A DNA stretch of 52,943 nucleotides from Fidelibacterota bacterium (GCA_022567655.1 JADFGO010000002.1:1-52943), one strand, 5' to 3'; counted from the first letter of the stretch, positions 6,244 through 52,730 are shown. The notes: generated from the letters alone by a model not told the origin. Made by a program: numbers and translations.

Positions 6244-7656
6244 TTAAGTGTTAAGCCGAGACCGAATTGTCATCCACCGGAAGATAAAAAAAAGCATGAA
6301 CGACACAGCAAGCCCGGGGAATATCGGCTCTACCCCAAAAAGATAAAGCGGTTCAAGTTGGGAACCATTGTAGAAACCGATCATTAGCAAAACCGAAGAT
6401 ATGGTGAATGCGGAAAGCATTAACCAGAGTGTGTGATTCCCCAGTAAGCGATAGCGGGGGAAATATGTCGATACGACAGGAATCAGCAGTGCCGGTATAA
6501 GCACGCTCCCGAACGAGTACCATATCCCGATTACGGAGGGAATCAGGTATGAAATCACAATCGCTGTGATCAGCGTTATTATAATACCTATCTTTGTATT
6601 TGATACGCTGTCGTCCGCTCTATTTTTTCTGAGTCTCCAGATCAGATCTCTTCCGATGGTAGCTCCGGATATCAGCGTAAGACTGTCCACAGTCGACATA
6701 ATTGTTGACAGCATTCCGATAAAAAACAGACCCTTGGCGACGGGCGGTAGTAATGCCTCAGCCAAAAGCGGGTATGCCTGAACGGGACTTATTCCGGGCA
6801 GCAATGCTCTGGCATAAAGTCCGGCGCTGATGGTCATAAAGTCAAATAATACCCAGAAACCAATGGCGATGAATATCCCTTTGCGGGCTACGGATGGATT
6901 TTTCGCGGCTGCGCAGCGCTGGTGGAATGATGGATCCACAAGCGTCCACAGGGCTATAAAGAACCAGACGATTATGTATTCTATACTAATACTACCTTGC
7001 CATGTGAGATGAAGATTGGGGACGGATGAAGAAATATAACCTATTCCGCCGAGCTCACTGACGGCAAAAAACAGCAGCATAACGAACCCGGAGTACATCA
7101 AAACGAATTGCAATTTATCCGTTTGAGCCACGGCGCTGAATCCGCCGGAATAAATATATACTACCGAAAGCAGAGCCCCTATCACTATTGAGAGACCGAA
7201 GCTCCACCCGAATATAAGCTGAAGCAGAACTCCGAGCATCAAGACATAAGGCGCCGGTGAAGAAATGAGGAATATCAACAGGCTGCCGAATATGCCTGTG
7301 GCTTTCCCGAAACTTTCATACAATCTGTCGGGCATTGTAAGAGATTCTCCCTCTCGAATTTTACCCGCAAGCAAGACAGCGAAGAGAGCTGAAAAAATAT
7401 AAAAGGGAAAACCGAGAACAATCCAGGTGGAAACCCCGTGTTGATAAGAAAATTCGCCTATCCCCAATATGCCCCCGTAAAAAGTGACAACAAGCGTAGC
7501 CACGAATCCGGGTACCGTCAGGCGTCTTCCAGCCAAAAGAAAGTTCTCGGGATCGTTGTTTTTCTTCCTTCCTGCCCGAAATCCCATGAATACGACTGTC
7601 GAAAAATACAGGAATATCAGGATCATGTCGATTCCGCTGAAGGTGATTTTATCCAA
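6244..7656 (-). CDS. Sodium:solute symporter family (SSF) transporter, last gene of the TPP-riboswitch operon (candidate thiamine/precursor importer, ThiV-like)
   Basis: 470-aa multi-pass membrane protein with an SSF-like N-terminus (TM1 followed by NFLLAGRRL). The TTG start at 7656 overlaps the thiN stop; an alternative ATG lies at 7626. Confidence 0.8.
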   Translation of the reverse strand: MDKITFSGIDMILIFLYFSTVVFMGFRAGRKKNNDPENFLLAGRRLTVPGFVATLVVTFYGGILGIGEFSYQHGVSTWIVLGFPFYIFSALFAVLLAGKIREGESLTMPDRLYESFGKATGIFGSLLIFLISSPAPYVLMLGVLLQLIFGWSFGLSIVIGALLSVVYIYSGGFSAVAQTDKLQFVLMYSGFVMLLFFAVSELGGIGYISSSVPNLHLTWQGSISIEYIIVWFFIALWTLVDPSFHQRCAAAKNPSVARKGIFIAIGFWVLFDFMTISAGLYARALLPGISPVQAYPLLAEALLPPVAKGLFFIGMLSTIMSTVDSLTLISGATIGRDLIWRLRKNRADDSVSNTKIGIIITLITAIVISYLIPSVIGIWYSFGSVLIPALLIPVVSTYFPRYRLLGNHTLWLMLSAFTISSVLLMIGFYNGSQLEPLYLFGVEPIFPGLAVSFMLFFIFRWMTIRSRLNT

Positions 7657-8305
7657 CTATCGGTGTACCATCGCTTTTTTCGAATAGTTTGAACAGAAAT
7701 AATCCGTCTCCGAATACCTTGACAGTGACAGATGGTTCCGAGACTTGATTGCTGACTCCGAAGGGACCGAACGATTGCAGTTCCCCGTCAAGCTCCCACT
7801 TTAATCCTTTTGTGGTAACCCAGGATGAACCACCGAGAACCATGAGTGAAATTTTTCTTCCTATTTCCGCCTCAAAAGTCAGGTCCTTCAGCACGAATAC
7901 AGTTTCCGCGAAGTCGTCAAGGATAGTGAGACGGGCAAGTTGATCGTACCGCTTCAGCAAGCTCAGATTCGCGAGCGAATGGTCGATCTTTTTTCCTGTC
8001 GCGCCGAGGAGAACTATCTCATCCATACCCTGAGATATTTCATACTCGATCGCCTTCATACTGTCGGTCGTGTTCTCATCGGTATCTTCGATAATTTCTG
8101 TTTTATTGAATTTCTTAACGGTCGCCGGAAGAATAGAATCCATATCTCCGATAATAAGAACGGGTGAGTAACCGGTGTCAGTCAGGTGATTAGCTCCCCC
8201 GTCCGCGCAGACTATTCTTTCGGAGGAATCGAGCAGAGCCTTAATTCTATCATTGAGAATGAAGTCTCCGTTTCCAATAACAACCGACTTTTGTATGTCG
8301 GTCAA
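7649..8305 (-). CDS. thiN: Thiamine pyrophosphokinase
   Basis: 218 aa with TPK motifs CADGGANHL, IIGDMDS, TDSMKAIEY and GATGKKIDHSLANL. It overlaps the upstream receptor gene by 4 nt. Confidence 0.88.
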   Translation of the reverse strand: MTDIQKSVVIGNGDFILNDRIKALLDSSERIVCADGGANHLTDTGYSPVLIIGDMDSILPATVKKFNKTEIIEDTDENTTDSMKAIEYEISQGMDEIVLLGATGKKIDHSLANLSLLKRYDQLARLTILDDFAETVFVLKDLTFEAEIGRKISLMVLGGSSWVTTKGLKWELDGELQSFGPFGVSNQVSEPSVTVKVFGDGLFLFKLFEKSDGTPIVG

Positions 8306-10734
8306 AACTTGAGCGTGACAGTTATATATGCGTTTCTTAAGGCGGCGGGAATATATTCGGGAATAAATCCCTGATAGTAGTACACGTAGCCGCTGGTCTC
8401 ATATTTCGTATCAAGAATATTATTGACGTTAAGCTGGATTCGGATAGGAATAGCGTTTCCGGCGTTGTTATAGTCATAACTCAGGAAGAAATTAACAATC
8501 CTATGTGCGTTTATCGATAAATCAGCTGTTCCGGAATTGTCAAGAAACTGCCCACCCACAAACCGTGTATAAAGGAACGATGAGATTGTACTTCCTCTGT
8601 ACCCTACCTTAATTCCCGCGAGGTAATCGGGAAAGCCGGAAATTTTATTGCCGGAACGGTCTATCGGAAACAGCTTCCCTTCGATGTCATATCCCGGTTC
8701 ATTGTAACTGACAAAGTAATTATCGTTGAGACTAAAATTTCCGGAGATATACGCCCCGTTCGTTAAAGACCAGGAAGCATCAGCCTCAATTCCCCGGTGA
8801 ATAGACTTCACGGCGTTGTAGTACAGTCTTAATCCGATATCGTCCACCTGTCCGGTCGGAACTATCTCATCCCTGAAGTCCATATAGAATAAATTAAGTT
8901 TCAAAAATGCATTTGAGTTCCGCCATGCGCCTCCGAGTTCGTAATCATAGAGGGTTTCTTGTCCTATAAGCGGTTTGCTGAAGTTCGGTGTGCCGTCCGG
9001 GTTTAATTCAAAACGAGGTACGGCATAAGGGTCGTCGGCGTCATAAATGTCCGCGTCTCTCGGCTCGCGATTGGCAACGGAGAAATTGACAAATGCCGTT
9101 ATGCTGCTGTTCAGCCTGCGATTAATACCCATTCGGGGTGTGAGAAAGTTATAGTTCACACTGTATTCATAATCGTTTTTGAAGGCGCCTATCGGGTTCT
9201 GATCGAAATCATAGCCGATATGCTGATATTGAACGTCGAACATCAGGTCTGTATTTTCGTCTATACCGTATACTACGTGAGTGTAAATAGTGGAGGATTG
9301 TTTACCGGTTTCGTACCCGTAATATTTGTTGTTAGGCGGCGTTTGATTGTTCTCTTTTACCCAAATAACTTCACCCCAGTGCTTTGCGTTATAGAAGCTG
9401 AACTCTGCTCCCAATGCCAGCGACCAGCCGGCTTTCGTGAAAGTAAATCTGGGGAGCCATCCCCATTGTGATTTATCAACGTTCTTCTTTCGCACGAGGT
9501 CAGTGGTTTCAACACCAACGAGGTTATACTCGACAGGATTTCTGTCAGATTTATAATCCTGAAAGAAACCGTCGCCCTTTACATGGAAGAAGGTGTTCTC
9601 GAATCTGATTTGTTCATTTATTCTCCAGTCGTTGATTAACTGATAGTGGCTTTGTAAAAAATCGTCCACCTGCTCGTCGAAGAATTCATTTTCTTCGCTT
9701 GGCGAATAAAAATTTGAGCGGCGCAGATCGTCATCATCTAAGAGATCCTTACCGATACCGAACCATGCGAATTTTGCCACCAATGGTCCACCGAATACGT
9801 TAAACGTGGTCGTCATATCACGGTCATAGCGGCTGCCGGATAAAAAATACGACCATGAATCGACGCCGGAGTCTGTCCGGTATCCGTCCGTTCGTAATTT
9901 GGAAAATCTTCCGTAGGCGGAATACTTGTTTTCAATGTAGCCGGTTCCAAAAGAAAAATTTAATCTTCGCGTATTGTAACTACCGGACGTTCCTGAAAGA
10001 GTAATTCCCGGTTCTGTGCCGGCGCCTTTCGTCAGTATATTAATCGAACCTCCGATAGCGGCAGTCCCATATAGTGAGTTACCGACGCCTCTTTGAACCT
10101 GAACGTCTTGTATATTGGCGGAGAGGTCTGCTATATCATAAAAATAAGTCACGTGGTCTTCCGGGTCGTTCAGCGGAACGCCATTCAGGGTTACGGCAAC
10201 TCTTGTGGCGTCAAAACCCCTGATTTTTATCTCCGTGTAACCCATTCCGCTTCCGGTCATGGAATAGGAGTAGAGGCTCGGGATTTCGTCGAGGAGCATC
10301 GGGAGTTCCTGAGAGGAATATTTTTCGGTCAGCGTCCTTGAATCCACATTACTGAATGCTACCGGGGTTTTCCCGCTGATCGCCCGGGTTGCGCTCACCA
10401 CAACGTTTTCTCCTTCGAGTATCCTCGGATAAAGAGAAAAGAGCACAGAAAGAGCGGTCTGTCCGACCGTTATCTTTTGTTTCCGGACATCGTACCCGAT
10501 CACACCCGCGCTTATGGTGAATTCTCCGGCCGGCACGCCGCGAATAATGAATTGACCGCTTTCATTTGTGGCGGCGCCGAACGTAGTGCCTTCTATGAGT
10601 ACGTTAGCTCCAAAAATAGGCTTGTTATCTATGGCGTTTCTTACGCTGCCTGATATTTCACTGCTGATTTGAGCGTTGGAGAATATTGGAACGAGTGTAA
10701 TAATTACTCCGGTGATGATATTCAGATAATTCAT
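8302..10734 (-). CDS. TonB-dependent outer-membrane receptor (thiamine-regulated)
   Basis: It has the signal peptide MNYLNIITGVIITLVPIFSNAQ, a CarboxypepD_reg-like N-domain, a plug, and a beta-barrel ending YITVTLKF. The ORF-track start at 10809 would translate the riboswitch. The ATG at 10734 has GGAGGGAGG 4 nt upstream. Confidence 0.9.
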   Translation of the reverse strand: MNYLNIITGVIITLVPIFSNAQISSEISGSVRNAIDNKPIFGANVLIEGTTFGAATNESGQFIIRGVPAGEFTISAGVIGYDVRKQKITVGQTALSVLFSLYPRILEGENVVVSATRAISGKTPVAFSNVDSRTLTEKYSSQELPMLLDEIPSLYSYSMTGSGMGYTEIKIRGFDATRVAVTLNGVPLNDPEDHVTYFYDIADLSANIQDVQVQRGVGNSLYGTAAIGGSINILTKGAGTEPGITLSGTSGSYNTRRLNFSFGTGYIENKYSAYGRFSKLRTDGYRTDSGVDSWSYFLSGSRYDRDMTTTFNVFGGPLVAKFAWFGIGKDLLDDDDLRRSNFYSPSEENEFFDEQVDDFLQSHYQLINDWRINEQIRFENTFFHVKGDGFFQDYKSDRNPVEYNLVGVETTDLVRKKNVDKSQWGWLPRFTFTKAGWSLALGAEFSFYNAKHWGEVIWVKENNQTPPNNKYYGYETGKQSSTIYTHVVYGIDENTDLMFDVQYQHIGYDFDQNPIGAFKNDYEYSVNYNFLTPRMGINRRLNSSITAFVNFSVANREPRDADIYDADDPYAVPRFELNPDGTPNFSKPLIGQETLYDYELGGAWRNSNAFLKLNLFYMDFRDEIVPTGQVDDIGLRLYYNAVKSIHRGIEADASWSLTNGAYISGNFSLNDNYFVSYNEPGYDIEGKLFPIDRSGNKISGFPDYLAGIKVGYRGSTISSFLYTRFVGGQFLDNSGTADLSINAHRIVNFFLSYDYNNAGNAIPIRIQLNVNNILDTKYETSGYVYYYQGFIPEYIPAALRNAYITVTLKF

Positions 10735-10741
10735 TTTGCCT

Positions 10742-10814
10742 CCCTCCGCTGGTATTATCCAGATCAGGTTGTAAGGGTATGTTCTCAGGCGGTATGGAGG
10801 AACCGCCACCCCTG
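10742..10814 (-). promoter_or_regulatory. TPP (THI-box) riboswitch
   Basis: The minus-strand RNA reads GGGGUGGCGGUUCCUCCAUACCGCCUGAGAACAUACCCUUACAACCUGAUCUGGAUAAUACCAGCGGAGGGAGG. This contains the conserved CUGAGA and ACCUGAUCUGGAUAAUACCAGCG blocks, colinear with E. coli thiM. The 3' end merges with the SD of the receptor gene. Confidence 0.95.
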
Positions 10815-10827
10815 TTGTTTCTCTGAT

Positions 10828-22599: not shown

Positions 22600-23328
22600 T
22601 TATTCTTTGCTGAAGACCCAGCTGCCGTCGGCTCTTTCGATTCCCTTATTCGGATTCATGAACACGAGCTTGAGTTTCCCATTTTCAGGCACCCAGGGGG
22701 TGCCGTCAAATTTACTTTTCGGGAGAAGCAATCCGAACTGAACTTTTTTGGTTTGCGCCTTCCGCCAGTTTTGGCGGACGGGAGGTTCATTCTCGGGCGA
22801 TAAAGTGACTATTAGCGGAACTTTTTTCGGTTCGTACTGATTTTCGTCTTCATCTTCCACAAATATGACCCACCGATCCGGGCTGAGATATTCCTTTGCA
22901 AAAGTCGTCCTCATGTAAATCCATATTAGATTATTGTTCTTCAGATCATAATCAGTGTTATATCTTATAAGCAACGAATCAGACTCTAACATGTCCATTC
23001 CAAGTGTGTTTTGATAAAATTCTCCGGCGCTTCGGAGTACCTCATCCGTCATCATTGTAGCGCTTATCAGCAATGGGAAACCCGGATATACGGAAGATGC
23101 CGCACCCGGTTTGCCAATCCCCGTGAAAAATGCGTCACTGTTTCCGGTCATCCGGACTCCGGTGCCGAACAGGATGGTATTTTTCGAAATTGCTTCGATA
23201 TACTCTGTAGCTTCCGATTTGTAGATAAATCCGTTTTGTGACGAAGTTTCGACAGCGGTATAGCATCCGAGTGAAAAACCGGATAAAATTAAACAAACGA
23301 TGCCCAAACGATAGCATTCTTTTGTCAT
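22600..23328 (-). CDS. Hypothetical secreted/lipoprotein
   Basis: 242 aa with an N-terminal hydrophobic signal ending in Cys (LSGFSLGC). The ATGA overlap with the upstream gene suggests translational coupling. I recognise no motif. Confidence 0.6.
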   Translation of the reverse strand: MTKECYRLGIVCLILSGFSLGCYTAVETSSQNGFIYKSEATEYIEAISKNTILFGTGVRMTGNSDAFFTGIGKPGAASSVYPGFPLLISATMMTDEVLRSAGEFYQNTLGMDMLESDSLLIRYNTDYDLKNNNLIWIYMRTTFAKEYLSPDRWVIFVEDEDENQYEPKKVPLIVTLSPENEPPVRQNWRKAQTKKVQFGLLLPKSKFDGTPWVPENGKLKLVFMNPNKGIERADGSWVFSKE

Positions 23329-24143: not shown

Positions 24144-24412
24144 CGGGTCAAATTAACCGGTGGTGGAAGTAATTGTCAAGTTTGACGGCGGCAAAAACAG
24201 AATCGGTCGATTTTAATGCAAGAATAAATATGAATCGTGGAAAGAAAATATTTCTTGGAATTTGAACAAATCGGGTTAATATTACACAATATGTAGTGTA
24301 TGAGGATATTTATATACTACAGATTGAAACTATCCAACTGAAAATTTAGTAGAATTATACGTTTATACGGTGAAAGCCAAGCTGACTGGATAAATTGATG
24401 AAGAGGGAGGCA

Positions 24413-24949
24413 ATGAAAAACAGGACACTGGTTTTTGGAGGATTATGGATATTCCTTATGACAGGCACGGGGATCAAGTACGGAGTCGAATATGATGCTG
24501 CGGGTGAAATAACAGAGCTGCAAAATGAAAACCGTACACTTCTCAAGTCATTAAATCAGATTGAGGAATCACTGATCTGGCTCCAGAAAGAGTATAGCCG
24601 AAACCCGTATAGGGGGCTCGCGCGAATAGTGTCAACCGCGTACAGCTCTGACGTTAACCAGACGGATTCAACACCCTTCATTACAGCGAGTGGAGAGCCT
24701 GTCCGGGAGGGTACTCTTGCATTGAGCAGAGATATGATCAGAGCTGAAAACGAAATGATGGAGCGCATGGGATATAACCCTGCGGCGGCTATAAGTTACG
24801 GCGACACCGTAGATCTTATCTATGTTAGACGAATGGTCGTGCACGATACTATGAACAGACGGTATTCACGACGTGCGGATATCTGGATGGATTCGGAGCG
24901 TGATGCGCTTGCATGGGGTGTAAGGAATGTGTTCATAGTTCCCTTCTGA
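24413..24949 (+). CDS. 3D (MltA-like double-psi beta-barrel) domain protein
   Basis: It has an N-terminal TM/signal (MKNRTLVFGGLWIFLMTG), a coiled region, and a C-terminal pattern AYSSDVNQTDSTPFITASGEPV..GDTVDLIYV..VHDTMNRRY typical of 3D domains. The ORF track starts at 24395; the ATG at 24413 follows GAGGGAGG. Confidence 0.6.
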   Translation: MKNRTLVFGGLWIFLMTGTGIKYGVEYDAAGEITELQNENRTLLKSLNQIEESLIWLQKEYSRNPYRGLARIVSTAYSSDVNQTDSTPFITASGEPVREGTLALSRDMIRAENEMMERMGYNPAAAISYGDTVDLIYVRRMVVHDTMNRRYSRRADIWMDSERDALAWGVRNVFIVPF

Positions 24950-25083: not shown

Positions 25084-25144
25084 GGAAGCAGTCAAACTCT
25101 TTTCGTGAGTGATTAATGAGTCTTTCGAGAAATTGCATAACAAT

Positions 25145-26653
25145 ATGAAGAAATTATTTTTACTCTTTCTTCTTGCCTCTTGTTTTCTTTATGGGGAAAC
25201 ATTACGGGCACAGCTACGCTCCGACTTCGTCCTTGCTGATTCTGCAATCGGCGGAAACATCAAGCTTGACGGAGAAGGAAATCTCCATGCCGTTTGGAGA
25301 AAAGCTGATACCTCGTATGGTGCAGAAAGACCGGCATATTATGCAGCTTTCGATTCCATGGGGCTTCCCATATTAGCCCCTGCAAGAGTTTCTATCAGTA
25401 ATAATATCTGGTTTCCTCGCATCGCCTTATTAAAAGGTCACGCGGTAGTGGTCTGGGAGATACGAGGGAGCCTTGACGCCGATGAGATCGAAGCGAACGT
25501 TCTTGATCTTAGCGAAGAAATAGTGCAAAGAGCTACCGATTTTGCTGACGGGGACACATATTCGCCGGACGTTGCGTATCTGAACGACACAACGTTCATC
25601 GTTGTCTGGATAGGGGAGGGTTCATTTACTCAATCGGATTTCCAACTTTACGGTCAGATAGCCACCAACTCACTTATTTTCCAGGGAGGGCATATCCTTT
25701 TAGATGACCCAAAAGAACGCGGTGTAAGGCAATTTTCGCTGCGTGTTGTCGCCCGTCCCGAACGGGATGATTTTCTGATTGTCTGGCTTGATGACCGTTC
25801 GGGCAGTTTCAGAGCGTACGGAAGGCTGTTTAATTCGAACGGTTCACCCGTGGGTTCAAATTTCCTCATAAGCGAAGATCCGCAACTTACCTGGCTGGGA
25901 GAGGTTAGTGTCGCTATGAATGGGAGCGGAGAGTTCGGTGTTGTCTGGGCAGGTGAGACCGATTCGAACGAGTGGGTCGTTCAAATGCGGCGGCTCGGCG
26001 TTGATGGGACGCCTCTTGGTCCAAGCATACGAGTCGATTTATCAGCGCACAATTCTCTTTTCACGGACTATCCTGATATCTCGTTCGACCGTGATGGTAC
26101 TTTTATCGTGGTCTGGGACATGTTTATAAACGGTATTTCGAAAATTTACGCTCAGCGCTTCGAGTCAGATTGGACACCGCTGGGGGTCAACTTCAGAGTC
26201 TCCTCGGTTATGGATAGTTCACGCCAATATTTCTCAAGTGTTTTGCTCCGAAATGGAAGAATTTACACCACATGGACTTCGGCAGGCGATTCGACGGCAG
26301 CTAAGCTTCTATCAAACATAATTGACTTTTATGATCCACCGAACCTTGAAACTCAATCAGAACCGATTTTACCTCTCGCCTTTTCTCTACACCAGAATTA
26401 CCCCAATCCTTTTAATGCCATTACAACCATCGTATACGAAATCAAGCGCCCCTCGAGAGTACGGCTGGTTGTTTATAATATATTGGGTGAAGAGGTGACT
26501 ACACTTGTGCGGGATATGAAAATACCGGGAGTCTATGAATCAGTGTGGGACGGAAAAGACCGGCAGGGGATGGAAGTGTCATCAGGGGTTTACCTGTATC
26601 AACTCATGTCAGATGGACAGGTACAGACAAAGAAGATGGTTTTGTTGAAGTAG
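25145..26653 (+). CDS. Secreted repeat protein (about seven ~55-aa blades) with T9SS C-terminal sorting domain
   Basis: It has the signal peptide MKKLFLLFLLASCFLYG and a periodic hydrophobic-VW motif (AVVVW, FIVVW, FLIVW, FGVVW, FIVVW, IYTTW). The C-terminus YPNPFNAITTIVYEI..VYNILGEEV..GVYLYQL resembles a T9SS CTD. Confidence 0.8.
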   Translation: MKKLFLLFLLASCFLYGETLRAQLRSDFVLADSAIGGNIKLDGEGNLHAVWRKADTSYGAERPAYYAAFDSMGLPILAPARVSISNNIWFPRIALLKGHAVVVWEIRGSLDADEIEANVLDLSEEIVQRATDFADGDTYSPDVAYLNDTTFIVVWIGEGSFTQSDFQLYGQIATNSLIFQGGHILLDDPKERGVRQFSLRVVARPERDDFLIVWLDDRSGSFRAYGRLFNSNGSPVGSNFLISEDPQLTWLGEVSVAMNGSGEFGVVWAGETDSNEWVVQMRRLGVDGTPLGPSIRVDLSAHNSLFTDYPDISFDRDGTFIVVWDMFINGISKIYAQRFESDWTPLGVNFRVSSVMDSSRQYFSSVLLRNGRIYTTWTSAGDSTAAKLLSNIIDFYDPPNLETQSEPILPLAFSLHQNYPNPFNAITTIVYEIKRPSRVRLVVYNILGEEVTTLVRDMKIPGVYESVWDGKDRQGMEVSSGVYLYQLMSDGQVQTKKMVLLK

Positions 26654-26843: not shown

Positions 26844-27458
26844 TTACTCTGAGCTCTTCTTTTTCGGTTTCATGAGTTCGCCGAACTCATAACCGAGCGC
26901 GCCGGATGTCGCTATCACGGTTCTGCCCATATCGACGAGCGGATCGGGGAATTCATCCCAAACGGCATCCGAATCATAAAGGAAGAACATATCCCACGCT
27001 ACGCTGCTGGTGACGTCGGGTGCGATGTTTTTCTTGAAGAACGTTCCGCTTAACCGCGTCGGGTCCCAATAATGCAGGACGCGCGAGTCGGGAAGAAGCG
27101 CTACAGCGTCGGGTACGGCGAGTTTCGAATCACCGCGGATAACAGGCATCCAGACGACGTAGAGCTGAAAGTCCGCATCGGGATATTTTGTCAGTATATT
27201 TTTCTGCACCCACCTGGCGCCGCGGATACAAACCGATCAGGTAGGAGACATTAACAGGAAGAGCCTTACCTTTCCCCCGTCCTTGTTGAAAAGCTCCTTG
27301 AGAGTGTCAATGCCTTGAAGTTCTTTGAAGCGGGCGTTACGGTATTGATTATTAGCGGGATCTGCCGCTATCTGACTGCCGGGGATTATGAAAAGGACAA
27401 GAAAAAGGAATATGCGTATTCTATTTAAGTAGTTTGTTCTCAACGGCCCTCCAATCAA
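26844..27458 (-). CDS. Candidate selenoprotein: secreted thioredoxin-fold protein with U-x-x-C motif (in-frame TGA at 27237-27239)
   Basis: ORFs 27237..27458 and 26844..27209 share a frame and are separated only by TGA plus 9 sense codons. The read-through product is ..VRLFLLMSPT-U-SVCIRGARWVQKN..FQLYVVWMP.., the beta1-CxxC-alpha1-beta2 layout of thioredoxin folds. An N-terminal signal anchor is present only in the upstream part. Confidence 0.65.
27205..27230 (-). promoter_or_regulatory. SECIS-like hairpin 6 nt downstream of the in-frame UGA
   Basis: The minus-strand RNA is UGUAUCCGC-GGCGCCAG-GUGGGUGCA. It forms a 9-bp stem (3 G.U) with an 8-nt loop starting GG, about 16 nt after the UGA. 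Confidence 0.5.
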
Positions 27459-27542
27459 TTTAGATGTAAATCAGTGAACTATTTCGTGTGAACTTATCGG
27501 TGAGGAATATACAAATCAAGTGAAAATCTCGGGAATAACAGC

Positions 27543-27571
27543 TTGCAATAGTAGGATAGCCGTTATATATT
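27543..27571 (+). promoter_or_regulatory. Putative sigma70 promoter of the Rrf2 operon
   Basis: TTGCAA-17 nt-TATATT. Confidence 0.5.
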
Positions 27572-27575
27572 TCAA

Positions 27576-27594
27576 TCGGACAAAGATTGTCCGA
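27576..27594. promoter_or_regulatory. Palindromic operator candidate (8-3-8)
   Basis: TCGGACAA-aga-TTGTCCGA lies immediately downstream of the -10 and upstream of the Rrf2 regulator gene, so an autoregulatory site is plausible. Confidence 0.45.
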
Positions 27595-27616
27595 ATTAAA
27601 ATGGCGGATAAAAAAG

Positions 27617-28048
27617 ATGGAATTTACCTCAAAAAGCGAGCATGCGATACACGGTGTATATTACCTTTCCAACAAACCGGAGAACATGGTAGTCTACGTT
27701 AGTGAAATTGCAAGAGAGCAAAACGTCTCGGAGAGTTATCTCGCGAAAATATTTCAGGCTCTTTCAAAGGCCGGATTAGTAAGTTCTTACCGCGGATCGA
27801 AAGGCGGCTATACTCTTTCGAAACGACCGGAAGATATAAACCTGAAAGAGATTGTCGGAGCGGTGGAGAGTACCAACCCAATATTCAACTGTAGTGGAGT
27901 TAAGTCAAACTGTTCGATAAACATCCAATGTATGATTCTGGAGACTTTTCAGGCTGCGGAAGATAAGATGTTCGAGGTGTTGGAAAGCGTCACCATGAAA
28001 GGTATCGCCGATCAGCTTGCGGGTCAGCCGATTTATATCGAAAACTAA
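27617..28048 (+). CDS. Rrf2-family transcriptional regulator (IscR-like, three-Cys cluster motif)
   Basis: It has an N-terminal wHTH (SEHAIHGVYYLS..VSEIAREQNVSESYLAKIFQAL) and NCSGVKSNCSINIQC. The ATG at 27617 is preferred over the TTG at 27587. Confidence 0.85.
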   Translation: MEFTSKSEHAIHGVYYLSNKPENMVVYVSEIAREQNVSESYLAKIFQALSKAGLVSSYRGSKGGYTLSKRPEDINLKEIVGAVESTNPIFNCSGVKSNCSINIQCMILETFQAAEDKMFEVLESVTMKGIADQLAGQPIYIEN

Positions 28049-35286: not shown

Positions 35287-36690
35287 ATGACTGAGAATCA
35301 ACGAACGATTTCAAAACCGGTACATTTCTCCGGCATAGGACTCCATACAGGATTAAAAAGCAGAGTGACCTTCAGGCCTGCTCCGGTAAATCATGGGATC
35401 CGGTTTGTCCGCACGGATCTTGAAAACAGTCCTGAGATAATTCCTCACATTAAGAATGTGGTAGACCTCAACCGCGGGACAAGCATAGAACAAAACGGCG
35501 TACGTATTCATACTGTGGAACATGTTTTAGGGGCGCTTGCCGGACTTCAGATAGACAACGTTTACGTTGAATTAACAAATAAGGAGCCGCCTGTAGGCGA
35601 TGGCAGCGCCAAGCCTTTTGTAGATGTATTGCAGAAAGCCGGTTTCGTGGAGCAGGCAGAAGAGAGAAAATACCTCTCTATCAAGGAGACTATCACGGTG
35701 ACCCAGCCCGAACGAGGCGCCGAAATTGTGGTGTTGCCTTCAGACGAGTTCAGGATAACATTCCTGGTCGATTACGACAATCCTGCCATTGGGAAGAAGT
35801 ACACTTCGATGTACTCACTTGAAGATGAGTTTGTCAAAGAATTCGCGCCTGCACGGACATTTTGCTTCCTGCATGAAGTGGAAGAACTGCACGCCGCAGG
35901 ATTGATAAGGGGCGGGAATTTAGATAATGCAATAGTCGTCGTTGACCGGAAACTTAATAAAAAAGATATCGAGTCTCTTAAGAAGCTGTTGCATATTAAA
36001 GGTGCTGTCAGAGTGCCGAATTCAGGCATCCTGAACGGCAAGAAATTGCGATTTGAAAATGAACCTGTCCGGCATAAGACTCTCGACCTGATTGGAGACC
36101 TTGCGCTGCTCGGTATTCCGATTAAAGCTCACGTTCTCGCTGCACGCAGCGGGCATTCGGCTAACGTGGAGATCGTAAAGAAACTATATAAGTACTACAA
36201 AAAAGAACAACTCACGAGCAAATTTCAGGTGAGCAAAACTGCCGGTCAAGTTTTCGACATTCAGACTATTGAGAAGATTCTGCCTCACAGGTATCCCTTC
36301 CTTCTTGTGGATAAGATTCTCGACCTGACGCCGGGTGAGAAAATTCTCGCTATCAAGAATGTCACGAGGAACGAACCGTTTTTTAACGGTCATTTCCCCG
36401 GACATCCGATAATGCCGGGAGTGTTGATAGTTGAGGCAATGGCTCAGGCCGGAGGTATCCTGATGCTCAGCGCCTTTGGGGATCCTAAGGGTAAACTCGT
36501 ATATTTTACGGGAATTGATAAAGTAAAATTCAGAAAACCTGTCACACCGGGAGACCAGCTAAAACTTGAGCTCGAGGTGGTCAAGATATTCAAGTCCACG
36601 TGCAAGATGAAGGGGAAAGCTTACGTGGAGGATAAGGTTGTGGCTTCGGCGGAGATGACTGCTACGATAGTAGATGCAGAAGACAAATAA
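35287..36690 (+). CDS. lpxC-fabZ: Bifunctional UDP-3-O-acyl-GlcNAc deacetylase / 3-hydroxyacyl-ACP dehydratase
   Basis: 467 aa. The N-terminal half is LpxC ([14 protein letters not shown]) and the C-terminal half is FabZ ([26 protein letters not shown]). Confidence 0.95.
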
Positions 36691-50463: not shown

Positions 50464-51561
50464 TCAGAATACTTCCTCTATTATTCCTCCGCCCAACAGC
50501 CTGTCGGAATCGTAGAATACCGCCGATTGTCCCGGTGCGACCGCTTCAGCAGGATGCGTAAAAGTTACATTCCAGCTACGGGCGGAATTTCTCTGTAACA
50601 ACGCCTCTTCACCAATATGATGGTGCCTTATTTTTACCGTAGCTCGAAATGATTTTTCACTCTCGTAGCCGGGCATCATGTTAACGTCTTTTAAACTGAA
50701 TTCGGTCGACATCAAATCTTCCTTTTTGCCAATTGTCAACGTGTTGCTTACCGGGTCTATCCCGATTACATAAGCGGGCTCGCCGAGTGTCACACCGAGA
50801 CCTTTTCTTTGCCCGATAGTATAGTTTACATAGCCGCTGTGAATCCCCAACACCTCGCCATCTGAGTCGAGAATCTCACCTTCGGGGACCATTTCCTCCA
50901 AACCGTCCACGTTTTCCCTTATATATCTACGGTAATCGTTATCGGGAATAAAGCAAATCTCGAACGACTCGGGAGTTTTTGAAGTACGGAGTCCCGCTTC
51001 TTCGGCTTTCTGCCGGACGGCGTCTTTTCTGAGTTCACCAAGCGGAAAGAGCGTTCTCTTGAGATCTTCCTGTTTTAACCCCCAAAGAACATAGGACTGG
51101 TCTTTATCCGGATCGATCCCCGTTAACAGCTCCACACTCCCGTTCCGGGAGTTTCTGTTAATCCGGGCGTAGTGTCCGGTAGCCACATATCGGGCATCAA
51201 AGACGTCGGCTTTTTCGAGTAGAGTGTCCCACCGGATAAGGTAATTGCAGCGAACGCAAGGGTTAGGAGTATTTCCGGCAAGATATTCCGACTTGAAATT
51301 TTCGATCACCTTTTCTTTGAATGAATCCGAAACATCGAAAACGTAATGAGGAATTCCCAGCTGGGTTGAGACCATGCGCGCGTTCTCGATGGAACCGAGC
51401 GAGCAGCAGGAGCTCTCCGCGTTCAGGTTTCCTCCGGCGCTTTCAAACTCCCAGTTCTTCATTGTAATGCCTATAACGTCATAACCCTGTTCGAGAAGAA
51501 GAAGCGCAGCGACGGAGCTGTCGACGCCCCCGCTCATAGCCATGATTACCTTTTCATTCAT
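50464..51561 (-). CDS. mnmA: tRNA 2-thiouridine(34) synthase
   Basis: AMSGGVDSSVAA, NPCVRCN and ESFEICF. Confidence 0.95.
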   Translation of the reverse strand: MNEKVIMAMSGGVDSSVAALLLLEQGYDVIGITMKNWEFESAGGNLNAESSCCSLGSIENARMVSTQLGIPHYVFDVSDSFKEKVIENFKSEYLAGNTPNPCVRCNYLIRWDTLLEKADVFDARYVATGHYARINRNSRNGSVELLTGIDPDKDQSYVLWGLKQEDLKRTLFPLGELRKDAVRQKAEEAGLRTSKTPESFEICFIPDNDYRRYIRENVDGLEEMVPEGEILDSDGEVLGIHSGYVNYTIGQRKGLGVTLGEPAYVIGIDPVSNTLTIGKKEDLMSTEFSLKDVNMMPGYESEKSFRATVKIRHHHIGEEALLQRNSARSWNVTFTHPAEAVAPGQSAVFYDSDRLLGGGIIEEVF

Positions 51562-52730
51562 AGCGCTGCCGTTTGCAATTCTTTTTTTCTGAGTCTTTCG
51601 ACCTGTTTTATGACGGCATTAACCGCTGTTCCGATCTCATCTTCGTTGTTGTCTCTTCCAAAAGAGAGTCTCAACGTACCGAGCGCTTCTGATTCGCTGA
51701 GCCCGATTGCCTTTAGAACAGGGGACATTTTTATCGCTCCTGAGGAGCAGGCAGCGCCGGCGGAAGCCGAAATGCCGTTGGTGTCGAGATTCATAAGCAG
51801 CGCTTCTCCGTCTACACCTTCAAACCTGAGCGAAAGATGTCCGGGTATTCGTCTTGTGGGATGCCCGTTCAGATCGACATCTCCCACTGCCTCTTTCAGC
51901 TCTTCGTAAAATATTTTTGCAAGCCGCTTAAGCTTTATGCTGTCTTCCTCTAATCTTGATGCCCTGAGTTCCGCAGCTCTTCCGAATCCCACGATACCGG
52001 GAACGTTTTCTGTTCCGCCCCTTCTGTTCCGCTCCTGATGTCCCCCGAACATTATCTGCTCGATTTCCACGCCCGCCCGAATATAAAGCGCACCGACGCC
52101 TTTAGGTCCGTAAATTTTGTGTGAGGAAACGCTTGCAAGGTCGACGTCTAACTGTGTTACGTCCATAGGCACCTTGCCGTATGACTGAACGATGTCGGTA
52201 TGAATCAGCACGCCGGCTTCGTGAGCGACCTCAGCGTATTTGTGAACGAGATTTATTGTACCGATCTCGTTATTCGAATGCATCAAAGAGACGAGGATAG
52301 TTTCCGGTCTGATTTCAGCTTCCAAGTCATGCGGGTGAATGCTGCCCTGCCTGTCAACGGGGACGTAAGTGATTTCGAATCCTTCTTTTTCGAGTTCCTT
52401 ACACGAGTCAATAACCGCCGGATGCTCAGTCTCAGCGGTGACGATGTGATTCCCCTTCTTCTTCAGAGCGTGAGCTACACCCCGCAGAGCCCAATTGTCC
52501 GCTTCCGTCCCGCCGCTGGTAAAATGGATTTCATCGGTTGAAGCGTTCATGAGTCCCGCAACTTTCTCGCGGGCTTCTTCTATCATGAACTTAGCGCCTC
52601 TGCCGTTTGCGTGAATACTCGACGGATTGCCCCAGTTCTCACCCATAGCGCTGTTCATCGCTTCGATGACCTCGGGGTCAACCGGTGTCGTCGCGCTGTG
52701 GTCGAGATATATTCGTTTATTCAGTTTCAA
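51558..52730 (-). CDS. iscS: Class I cysteine desulfurase (IscS/NifS family)
   Basis: 390 aa with the PLP-lysine SSHKIYGPKG and the active-site loop SAGAACSSG. It overlaps mnmA by 4 nt. Confidence 0.9.
   Translation of the reverse strand: MKLNKRIYLDHSATTPVDPEVIEAMNSAMGENWGNPSSIHANGRGAKFMIEEAREKVAGLMNASTDEIHFTSGGTEADNWALRGVAHALKKKGNHIVTAETEHPAVIDSCKELEKEGFEITYVPVDRQGSIHPHDLEAEIRPETILVSLMHSNNEIGTINLVHKYAEVAHEAGVLIHTDIVQSYGKVPMDVTQLDVDLASVSSHKIYGPKGVGALYIRAGVEIEQIMFGGHQERNRRGGTENVPGIVGFGRAAELRASRLEEDSIKLKRLAKIFYEELKEAVGDVDLNGHPTRRIPGHLSLRFEGVDGEALLMNLDTNGISASAGAACSSGAIKMSPVLKAIGLSESEALGTLRLSFGRDNNEDEIGTAVNAVIKQVERLRKKELQTAAL

Follow-up and report, generated by a model that had tools for sequence, protein, structure and literature searches.

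The type of selenoprotein met most often in bacteria has selenocysteine (Sec) in place of the first Cys of a thioredoxin-fold CxxC motif, and its selenocysteine insertion sequence (SECIS) lies within the coding region (PMC13188914). The same source lists bacterial selenoprotein families in a 119-entry table, each entry with a domain model. One of the entries is the 'thiol-disulfide isomerase-like' selenoprotein from the Sargasso Sea, which is assigned to cd02966 and carries a UxxC motif (PMC1088965, PMC13188914). We analyzed a candidate of this type on a 52,943-nucleotide contig from a Fidelibacterota bacterium (GCA_022567655.1, JADFGO010000002.1:1-52943), hereafter referred to as the window, meaning the whole stretch. 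An initial annotation based on the sequence alone had proposed that two adjacent open reading frames (ORFs) are the halves of one thioredoxin-fold gene with an in-frame TGA encoding Sec; its premise that Sec/Cys replacement in thioredoxin-like CxxC motifs is the most frequent bacterial type agrees with the published survey (PMC13188914). A conserved TGA, Cys-containing homologues, covariation in a SECIS hairpin, selection on both halves of the frame, and the predicted fold all support the selenoprotein interpretation. Judged by this comparative signature of Sec incorporation, the region 26844..27458 is very probably a single, genuine gene encoding an exported thioredoxin-fold selenoprotein.

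The gene is located on the minus strand. An ORF starting with TTG (27458..27237, 73 aa) is terminated by the TGA at 27239..27237, and an ORF starting with GTG (27209..26844, 121 aa) follows in the same frame, nine sense codons past the TGA. As initially described, this single TGA is the sole disruption of the frame 27458..26844, and read-through gives a 204-aa product. The complete coding sequence (26844..27458) thus holds 204 codons including that for Sec, plus the stop codon TAA at 26846..26844, and orthologues share this architecture; an in-frame TTG at 27443, with GGAGGG just 5' of it, is an alternative start. Around the site, the read-through sequence is ...KVRLFLLMSPT-U-SVCIRGARWVQKN..., in which the UGA (27237..27239) would encode Sec as residue 74. 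The Cys reported three residues past the TGA is present (codon 27230..27228), forming a U-S-V-C redox motif (SPT-U-SVC; Sec74 to Cys77, 27228..27239) directly N-terminal to the predicted helix α1 of the thioredoxin fold. The N-terminus, inspected by eye in the translation, has the shape of a signal peptide with a basic n-region, the segment IFLFLVLFII, and SQIAA|DP. We therefore assigned residues 1-32 (27363..27458) as a predicted signal peptide of the general secretory (Sec) type cleaved after SQIAA; orthologues have a similar -SIAA or -SYAA. Elsewhere in the window TGA is a genuine stop, as had been stated, ending 13 of the 45 ORFs, among them Pfam-complete ones and the ORF at the ATGA overlap 23325-23328. 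A TGA-sense genetic code (code 4 or 25) was rejected because of this normal use, and a scan of the window for other ORFs split by TGA left no credible one besides 26844..27458.

The in-frame TGA is conserved. A protein search with the read-through sequence, in which Sec was replaced by Cys, returned seven matches. P0001 is a full-length orthologue (73% identical) with C-S-V-C at the site in one continuous ORF, P0002 has W-P-V-C, and the other five are 121-aa pieces that start at the same Val/Met as the second ORF of the window. The contigs that encode these five pieces have a conserved open frame upstream, broken by TGA at exactly the aligned codon; the same in-frame TGA, with conserved flanks, was found in six close relatives. 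Scanning GTDB (one genome per species) with the alignment of close relatives gave four loci, one in a metagenome-assembled genome (MAG) of Candidatus Neomarinimicrobiota (75% identity), two in further MAGs (66% and 39%), and one in a Candidatus Sumerlaeota MAG (31%), all four with TGA at the aligned codon. The same holds for all ten related contigs or MAG loci with an N-terminally truncated called product; the loci carrying the TGA are L001-L004, L008-L012, and L133, in addition to 118 metagenome contigs. The latter come from a metagenome scan with the DNA pattern S-P-T-TGA-x-x-C-x-x-G-A-x-W, which gave at least 120 matches; among the matches listed, 118 of 120 are family members with sequence conserved on both sides of the TGA, the upstream flank being FN.D.G..RL.LL.SPT-U. 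The homologues with a complete product mostly have Cys instead. The 33 full-length representatives read S-P-T-[C 27, W 3, S 2, G 1]-x-x-C, and TGT was confirmed in the DNA of L005, L006, L134, and L135. An apparent 'W' protein, P0051, has TGA in its DNA (L133) and was therefore called with a table in which TGA encodes Trp.

Could the TGA be a defect? A single TGA in an otherwise intact frame, together with the treatment of the relatives as truncated hypothetical proteins by gene callers and NCBI, would also suit a pseudogene or an assembly error, namely a thioredoxin-like gene in which a nonsense mutation, or an erroneous base call, has closed the frame. However, the same TGA occupies the same codon in more than 125 independent assemblies at 31-97% identity. 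The relatives show no second disruption, and selection at synonymous sites keeps a hairpin just downstream. Between the window and its relatives, the proportion of nonsynonymous differences (pN) is 0.16-0.24, around 0.2, against a saturated synonymous proportion (pS) of 0.8-1.0, both upstream and downstream of the TGA, which indicates that both halves are under purifying selection. Neither a pseudogene nor an assembly error nor a pair of independent genes can account for the conserved TGA and the pN and pS values on its two sides, and we consider a decaying or misread gene extremely improbable.

Just downstream of the UGA, the family conserves a short hairpin. We stacked 118 distinct sequences without gaps from the UGA and numbered the positions from zero at its U. 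Positions 19-23 pair with 33-29, a sixth pair (24:28) is possible in 63 of the 118 sequences, and the loop is [C/A]-G-[U/G]-U-G, with the G in 116 and the following U or G in all 118. In the window, the hairpin is GCGCC-AGGUG-GGUGC (27206..27220, minus strand), with the 5' arm at 27220..27216, the loop at 27215..27211, and the 3' arm at 27210..27206, leaving 21 nt between UGA and loop (offsets 3-23). Over the 118 sequences, 91.1% of the cells are paired, and 19 cells show double changes, as compared with 2.4 in shuffles, where none of 500 reached 19. The covarying pair 27219:27207 joins the synonymous third positions of a Gly (GGN) and a Val (GUN) codon; it is CG in 91 sequences, GC in 13, UA in 5, UG in 4, AU in 1, and unpaired in 4, with the GC and UA variants spread over several subfamilies. 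Codon choice follows the same constraint. The Ala codon of the stem is GCC in 113 of 113 cases, as against 36% of the Ala codons elsewhere in the same genes, and the loop codon is solely CGU, CGG, AGU, or AGG, plus two CAG; CGC (44%) and AGC (85%), which are preferred elsewhere in the genes, never occur there. Among three Cys-form DNAs, two have a broken covarying pair, and the loop codons are AAA, GAG, and CGG (the last in L005). The loci from protein searches (the window, L001-L004, L008-L012, and L133) follow the same hairpin rules.

The bacterial SECIS (bSECIS) model behind bSECISearch allows a loop of 3-9 nt, an upper stem of 4-16 bp, 16-37 nt from UGA to loop, and a minimum free energy of at most -7.5 kcal/mol; a G should occupy loop position 1 or 2, as a rule with G or U after it (pattern N1 G [G|U] N N2) (PMC13188914). 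With its 5-bp stem, 5-nt loop A-G-G-U-G, 21-nt spacing, and -7.7 kcal/mol, the window hairpin lies within all of these limits, and the form with a 6-bp stem and a 3-nt loop, where 24:28 pairs, likewise fits the limits on stem and loop. Its stability alone is marginal, reaching -12.8 kcal/mol with flanking pairs; 107 of the 118 family members have a hairpin that is at or below -7.5 kcal/mol alone. Since the 91-nt context is no more stable than expected by chance (z = -0.35 vs shuffles), the evidence for the SECIS is comparative rather than thermodynamic. An Rfam scan of the window matched only a thiamine pyrophosphate (TPP) riboswitch and none of the SECIS models. Judged by covariation and codon choice, the short hairpin GCGCC-AGGUG-GGUGC is the predicted SECIS conserved throughout the family.

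To locate the UGA in a protein fold, we used an AlphaFold model of the Cys orthologue P0001. A model from a shallow 9-row alignment was unusable, with a predicted local distance difference test score (pLDDT) of 46.7, and was replaced by one from a 31-row alignment with a pLDDT of 92.8 and a predicted template modeling score (pTM) of 0.84. The model runs in the order β(48-54), C58xxC61, α(59-73), β, α, β, α, β-hairpin, and a long C-terminal helix. In a Foldseek comparison with the PDB, the top 50 hits all belong to the thioredoxin superfamily; TlpA/ResA/DsbE/CcmG/Etrx-type extracytoplasmic reductases lead the list, with a best E of 1e-5 and TM values on the target reaching 0.63, ahead of glutathione peroxidases and Sco proteins. 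The earlier placement of the TGA at the first Cys of a thioredoxin-fold CxxC is borne out by C58-x-x-C61 between strand 48-54 and helix 59-73, and the model confirms a predicted thioredoxin fold with CxxC/UxxC at the N-terminus of helix α1. Pfam and NCBIfam models do not detect this fold. A hidden Markov model (HMM) search against PDB sequences gave sub-threshold thioredoxin-like matches, the best being 2l5o (E = 0.08), a 'putative thioredoxin' of TlpA-like type that aligns at the CxxC. The window protein has no match at E <= 10 in Pfam or in NCBIfam release 20.0. For 31 diverse members, Pfam matches were not significant (best Redoxin 0.25 and AhpC-TSA 0.17), and NCBIfam gave nothing better than E = 0.013 (SaoT 0.19). 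Selenoprotein models of NCBIfam, including GOS_C (NF045500), SaoT (NF040730), HUIPC (NF047660), and DsbG-like (NF041057), stayed below their cut-offs. The Selenoprotein P N-terminal model (SelP_N, PF04592) matched two of the 31 members, with a best E of 0.044 that does not place the family there, and the Pfam models AhpC-TSA, Redoxin, and Thioredoxin_8 did not assign it to the TlpA/ResA/DsbE-like proteins.

The fold also bears on the possibility of two genes, one for a 73-aa secreted peptide and one for a 121-aa cytoplasmic protein from the GTG at 27209. Both ORFs have legal start codons, and 62 of 156 database representatives are called from that Val/Met codon. But the Cys-form homologues are single continuous ORFs, and the model joins both halves in one thioredoxin domain, with β1 encoded before the TGA and α1 after it. 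Conservation within the family is among the highest at the nine codons that separate the ORFs, that of the resolving Cys included, and the GTG called as a start (27207..27209) is a conserved Val codon that forms a paired triplet within the 3' arm of the SECIS stem. Two separate genes are hardly credible in the face of these features.

Several observations weigh against the incorporation of Sec or against its wider interpretation. Neither selA, selB, selD, nor tRNA-Sec was found in the window or in any related locus examined (590 kb): the window and 135 loci gave no tRNA-Sec, tblastn with an approximate E. coli SelD sequence had no match in related loci, and a Pfam scan of all 45 window ORFs revealed no sel gene. 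The sole lead in the literature for the phylum is an 'orphan SelD' in SAR406 single-cell genomes (PMC5029168). L007, a relative with 70% identity, has a genuine TGG (Trp) at the Sec codon (positions 417-419). The metagenome pattern fixed GGNGCN...TGG, so these bases are invariant by construction, with the covarying and synonymous positions left free. A longer stem at the same site is thermodynamically stronger in the window than the conserved hairpin (-14.8 vs -7.7 kcal/mol). Finally, the window gene has no CcdA-like neighbor, and the overall gene context of the family is heterogeneous. Apart from these points, we noted MnmA (tRNA 2-thiouridylase) after a class-V aminotransferase of the cysteine desulfurase or selenocysteine-lyase type at 50464..52730 (minus strand), a pair concerned with the delivery of sulfur or selenium to tRNA, which does not count as evidence for the Sec pathway. 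The hairpin of L007 is intact, with U-A at the covarying pair; its TGG may reflect a recent change from Sec to Trp, an error in sequencing, or a copy that is inactive.

The missing Sec machinery and the combination of TGG and an intact hairpin in L007 would fit a UGA that is read through, but not as Sec, either by near-cognate Trp or Cys insertion or, after loss of the machinery, with a mostly truncated product. We regard this explanation as very unlikely. In its position, its size, and its G-[G/U]-U loop, the hairpin agrees with the bSECIS consensus of SelB type, and strong selection at the nucleotide level is seen in TGA forms only; of the three Cys forms, two have lost the covarying pair and two have a loop codon foreign to the SECIS, L005 alone keeping CGG. 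Furthermore, Trp is functionally implausible as the nucleophile of a CxxC motif, and the apparent Trp form P0051 is really TGA.

The longer stem had been drawn in the initial annotation as a 9-bp SECIS (UGUAUCCGC / GUGGGUGCA, 27205..27230, minus strand) with the loop GGCGCCAG. That it can form was correct: RNAfold gives an 11-bp version as the minimum-free-energy fold in the window, and it is formable in close relatives, where C-I-R-G-A-R-W-V-Q is conserved. As a conserved SECIS it was rejected, since across the 118 family members it pairs at the level of shuffled columns (62.5% vs 61.9%). The stem uses the same 3' arm as the conserved hairpin with different partners, and the two exclude each other. 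The longer stem might still be the functional SECIS of the Marinimicrobia lineage in place of the family-wide hairpin, as it has a G in the first loop positions and a loop about 15-16 nt from the UGA. This seems unlikely to us. Within the clade, a C-G to U-A double change (window vs L009/L010) fits the short hairpin, RNAfold picks the short hairpin for the relatives L001-L003, and the 15-nt spacing of the longer stem is at or under the lower limit of the bSECIS model. The longer stem may instead compete with the conserved hairpin in this lineage.

For a selenoprotein decoded through the short hairpin, the following sequence of events can be proposed. A ribosome would arrive at the UGA (27239..27237) while the hairpin 21 nt downstream (27220..27206) holds SelB with Sec-tRNA(Sec) at this codon, and Sec would be inserted in place of termination. 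After removal of the signal peptide, the mature protein would be a TlpA/ResA/DsbE-like domain of about 170 aa with the active site U-S-V-C at the N-terminus of helix α1. Its selenolate could attack a substrate disulfide or an oxidized or metal-bound thiol, and Cys77 would resolve the intermediate to a selenenylsulfide. In many relatives, re-reduction would probably proceed via an adjacent CcdA/DsbD-type membrane electron carrier. The comparisons and the model show the recoding signature and the fold, whereas export, this catalytic cycle, a link to CcdA in the present genome, and any role in metal or oxidative stress are inferred.

Profile searches suggest that the family is large and mostly hidden by gene calling. 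Among 1.84 billion representative proteins, the profile matched 1021 at E <= 1e-3 and 186 at E <= 1e-10. Only 33 of 156 representatives are full-length, and 108 begin past the Sec position, 62 of them exactly at the Val/Met ten codons past it. These late starts are the footprint of gene callers, because the upstream TGA was taken as a stop. Of the top representative clusters, some 70% have the appearance of Sec forms; the late-start proteins and the TGA behind P0051 point to Sec as what appears to be the majority state of the family. Members are labeled 'hypothetical protein' in JGI/IMG and NCBI, and a close relative carries the NCBI label 'hypothetical protein [Candidatus Marinimicrobia bacterium]'; neither Pfam nor NCBIfam has a model for them. 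None of the Pfam and NCBIfam models in the 119-entry table, published in 2026, matches the window protein or the 31 members (PMC13188914). A literature search on selenocysteine in Marinimicrobia, SAR406, or Marinisomatota, or on CcdA with UxxC, found no specific prior description.

With a G+C content of 47%, the window shows 20 kb of synteny with a contig of the Neomarinimicrobiota MAG (Candidatus Neomarinimicrobiota B25T3L8, JACZYG01) at 55-83% amino-acid identity, and the genes nearby are of housekeeping type (BamA, Skp, LpxD/C/A, Dxr, RseP, GAPDH, RNase G, L21, Mdh, and PanBC). Divergent from the selenoprotein gene lies an Rrf2-family regulator (27587..28048, plus strand; Pfam Rrf2 E = 7e-37), which is also the neighbor in L002, L008, L009, and L010. 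Because this pairing is conserved in Marinimicrobia-type relatives, Rrf2 might regulate the selenoprotein gene. A promoter and terminator scan around the gene was at chance level; the 128-bp intergenic region between the two genes (27459..27586) contains one sigma-70-like match per strand, again a chance-level count. In the clade of the window, an Mrp/ApbC-TusA group is conserved beside the gene. The selenoprotein gene is separated from its 184-aa neighbor (24395..24949) by a gene (25109..26653, plus strand) for a protein of 514 aa that carries a C-terminal sorting domain of type IX secretion. This gene is a lineage-specific insertion, because the other two are adjacent in the syntenic loci L009 and L003.

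Context varies across about 115 metagenome loci, and some arrangements recur. CcdA/DsbD is the usual electron donor of TlpA/ResA-type proteins. A co-oriented, abutting gene for a CcdA/DsbD-like membrane protein occurs in 13 loci, and four of eight such neighbors tested reach Pfam DsbD_TM or DsbD_2 at E <= 0.01, which suggests an exported reductase fed by CcdA, a role that may extend to the window gene. HMA domains are fused to the family domain in P0011 and P0106 and neighbor it in L005, L012, and L057/L058, and MerR regulators are present in two loci. These give a hint of a link to copper or mercury handling that might apply to the window gene as well. P0011 (708 aa), P0031, P0043, and P0106 are multi-domain relatives with two copies of the family domain, apart from P0106, which is single-copy. 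Pfam HMA matches P0011 and P0106, with none reported for P0031 and P0043; P0106, called in the truncated form of Sec members, has its HMA domain at the C-terminus. A Cys-rich zf_CopZ protein (MTESCCCPPEAGN...) is encoded on the same strand 2-39 nt from the family gene, upstream in L021, L029, L030, L076, and L096 and downstream in L079. As one of the known selenoprotein families is a 2Fe-2S protein of the CopZ family, zf_CopZ and the family gene may form a small metal/redox operon.

Two further features of the window were also observed. A TPP riboswitch at 10724-10823 (minus strand; Rfam 63.1 bits) is followed on that strand by ORFs for a TonB-dependent receptor (8302..10809), a thiamine pyrophosphokinase (7649..8305), and a sodium:solute symporter (6244..7656), which together look like a thiamine-salvage operon; the true start of the receptor ORF is further downstream, because its GTG at 10809 overlaps the aptamer. 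A fused LpxC-FabZ protein, combining LpxC with a FabA-like dehydratase domain (35287..36690, plus strand), is encoded within an lpxD-lpxC/fabZ-lpxA cluster.

Taken at its widest, the locus would be the first recognized member of an undescribed and very abundant family of secreted TlpA-like selenol reductases, in which Sec is the majority state. These enzymes would draw electrons through CcdA-type import, and HMA and CopZ modules that bind copper or mercury would repeatedly be fused to them or encoded next to them. The protein would hence be a selenium-dependent extracytoplasmic enzyme of redox and metal defense that soil bacteria, Marinimicrobia, Sumerlaeota, and Armatimonadota commonly carry and that no current family model or genome annotation recognizes. 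We offer this broader picture tentatively, as possible rather than probable. About a thousand representative clusters at 50% identity sit in databases as truncated "hypothetical proteins", since selenoprotein genes are systematically mis-annotated when UGA is read as a stop. Recognizing the family would correct the annotation in many MAGs and add a selenium-dependent enzyme to the extracytoplasmic redox repertoire of uncultured groups that are abundant, both marine Marinimicrobia and soil lineages. Because Sec-for-Cys replacement in thioredoxin-fold CxxC motifs is well established, the finding is an extension of known biology rather than a surprise.

The thioredoxin-fold selenoproteins in Table 1 of PMC13188914 comprise Trx, Prx-like thiol:disulfide oxidoreductase, thiol:disulfide interchange protein, Redoxin-family, and DsbA/DsbG-like proteins. 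Like them, the window protein has U-x-x-C at the predicted N-terminus of helix α1, Cys homologues, and a coding-region SECIS right after the UGA. Unlike them, it is missed at E <= 10 by PF00085, PF00578, PF13098, PF08534, PF01323, NF041057, NF045500, NF040730, NF047660, and others, and the flanking motif S-P-T-U-x-x-C-x-x-G-A-x-W is specific to its family. TlpA, ResA, CcmG (DsbE), and Etrx are the best structural matches (Foldseek E 1e-5 to 1e-3) and share the predicted N-terminal export signal and, in 13 related loci, the CcdA/DsbD-type neighbor. In contrast to these reductases, the window's family has sub-threshold sequence similarity, a Sec nucleophile in most members, and a distinct C-terminal β-hairpin with a long helix. 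The Sargasso Sea selenoprotein resembles it in its marine origin, UxxC motif, TlpA-like label, and lack of a COG or Pfam assignment in 2005. That protein is said to have widespread Cys homologues in sequenced genomes, whereas the window's family occurs almost only in uncultured lineages and is unrecognized by NCBI annotation, a comparison made by description only. It is the one table entry still a candidate, and it is possible that the two are the same family; set apart from it by description only, the family S-P-T-U-x-x-C-x-x-G-A-x-W appears to be undescribed. As for the RNA element, the SECIS of Escherichia coli fdhF type is a SelB-binding apical hairpin with G-U in the loop. The family hairpin is like the fdhF type as generalized in bSECISearch in its short G+C-rich upper stem, its N-G-[G/U]-U-N loop, and the pairable first and last loop bases. 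Unlike the fdhF type, only 5-6 bp are conserved, with no conserved bulged U or lower stem. It is built wholly from the codons of G-A-(R/S)-W-V-(Q/R), and the constraints on protein and RNA are therefore superimposed. Such a minimal SECIS, in which every base is shared with conserved codons, would be useful for modeling SelB recognition and for selenoprotein gene finders.

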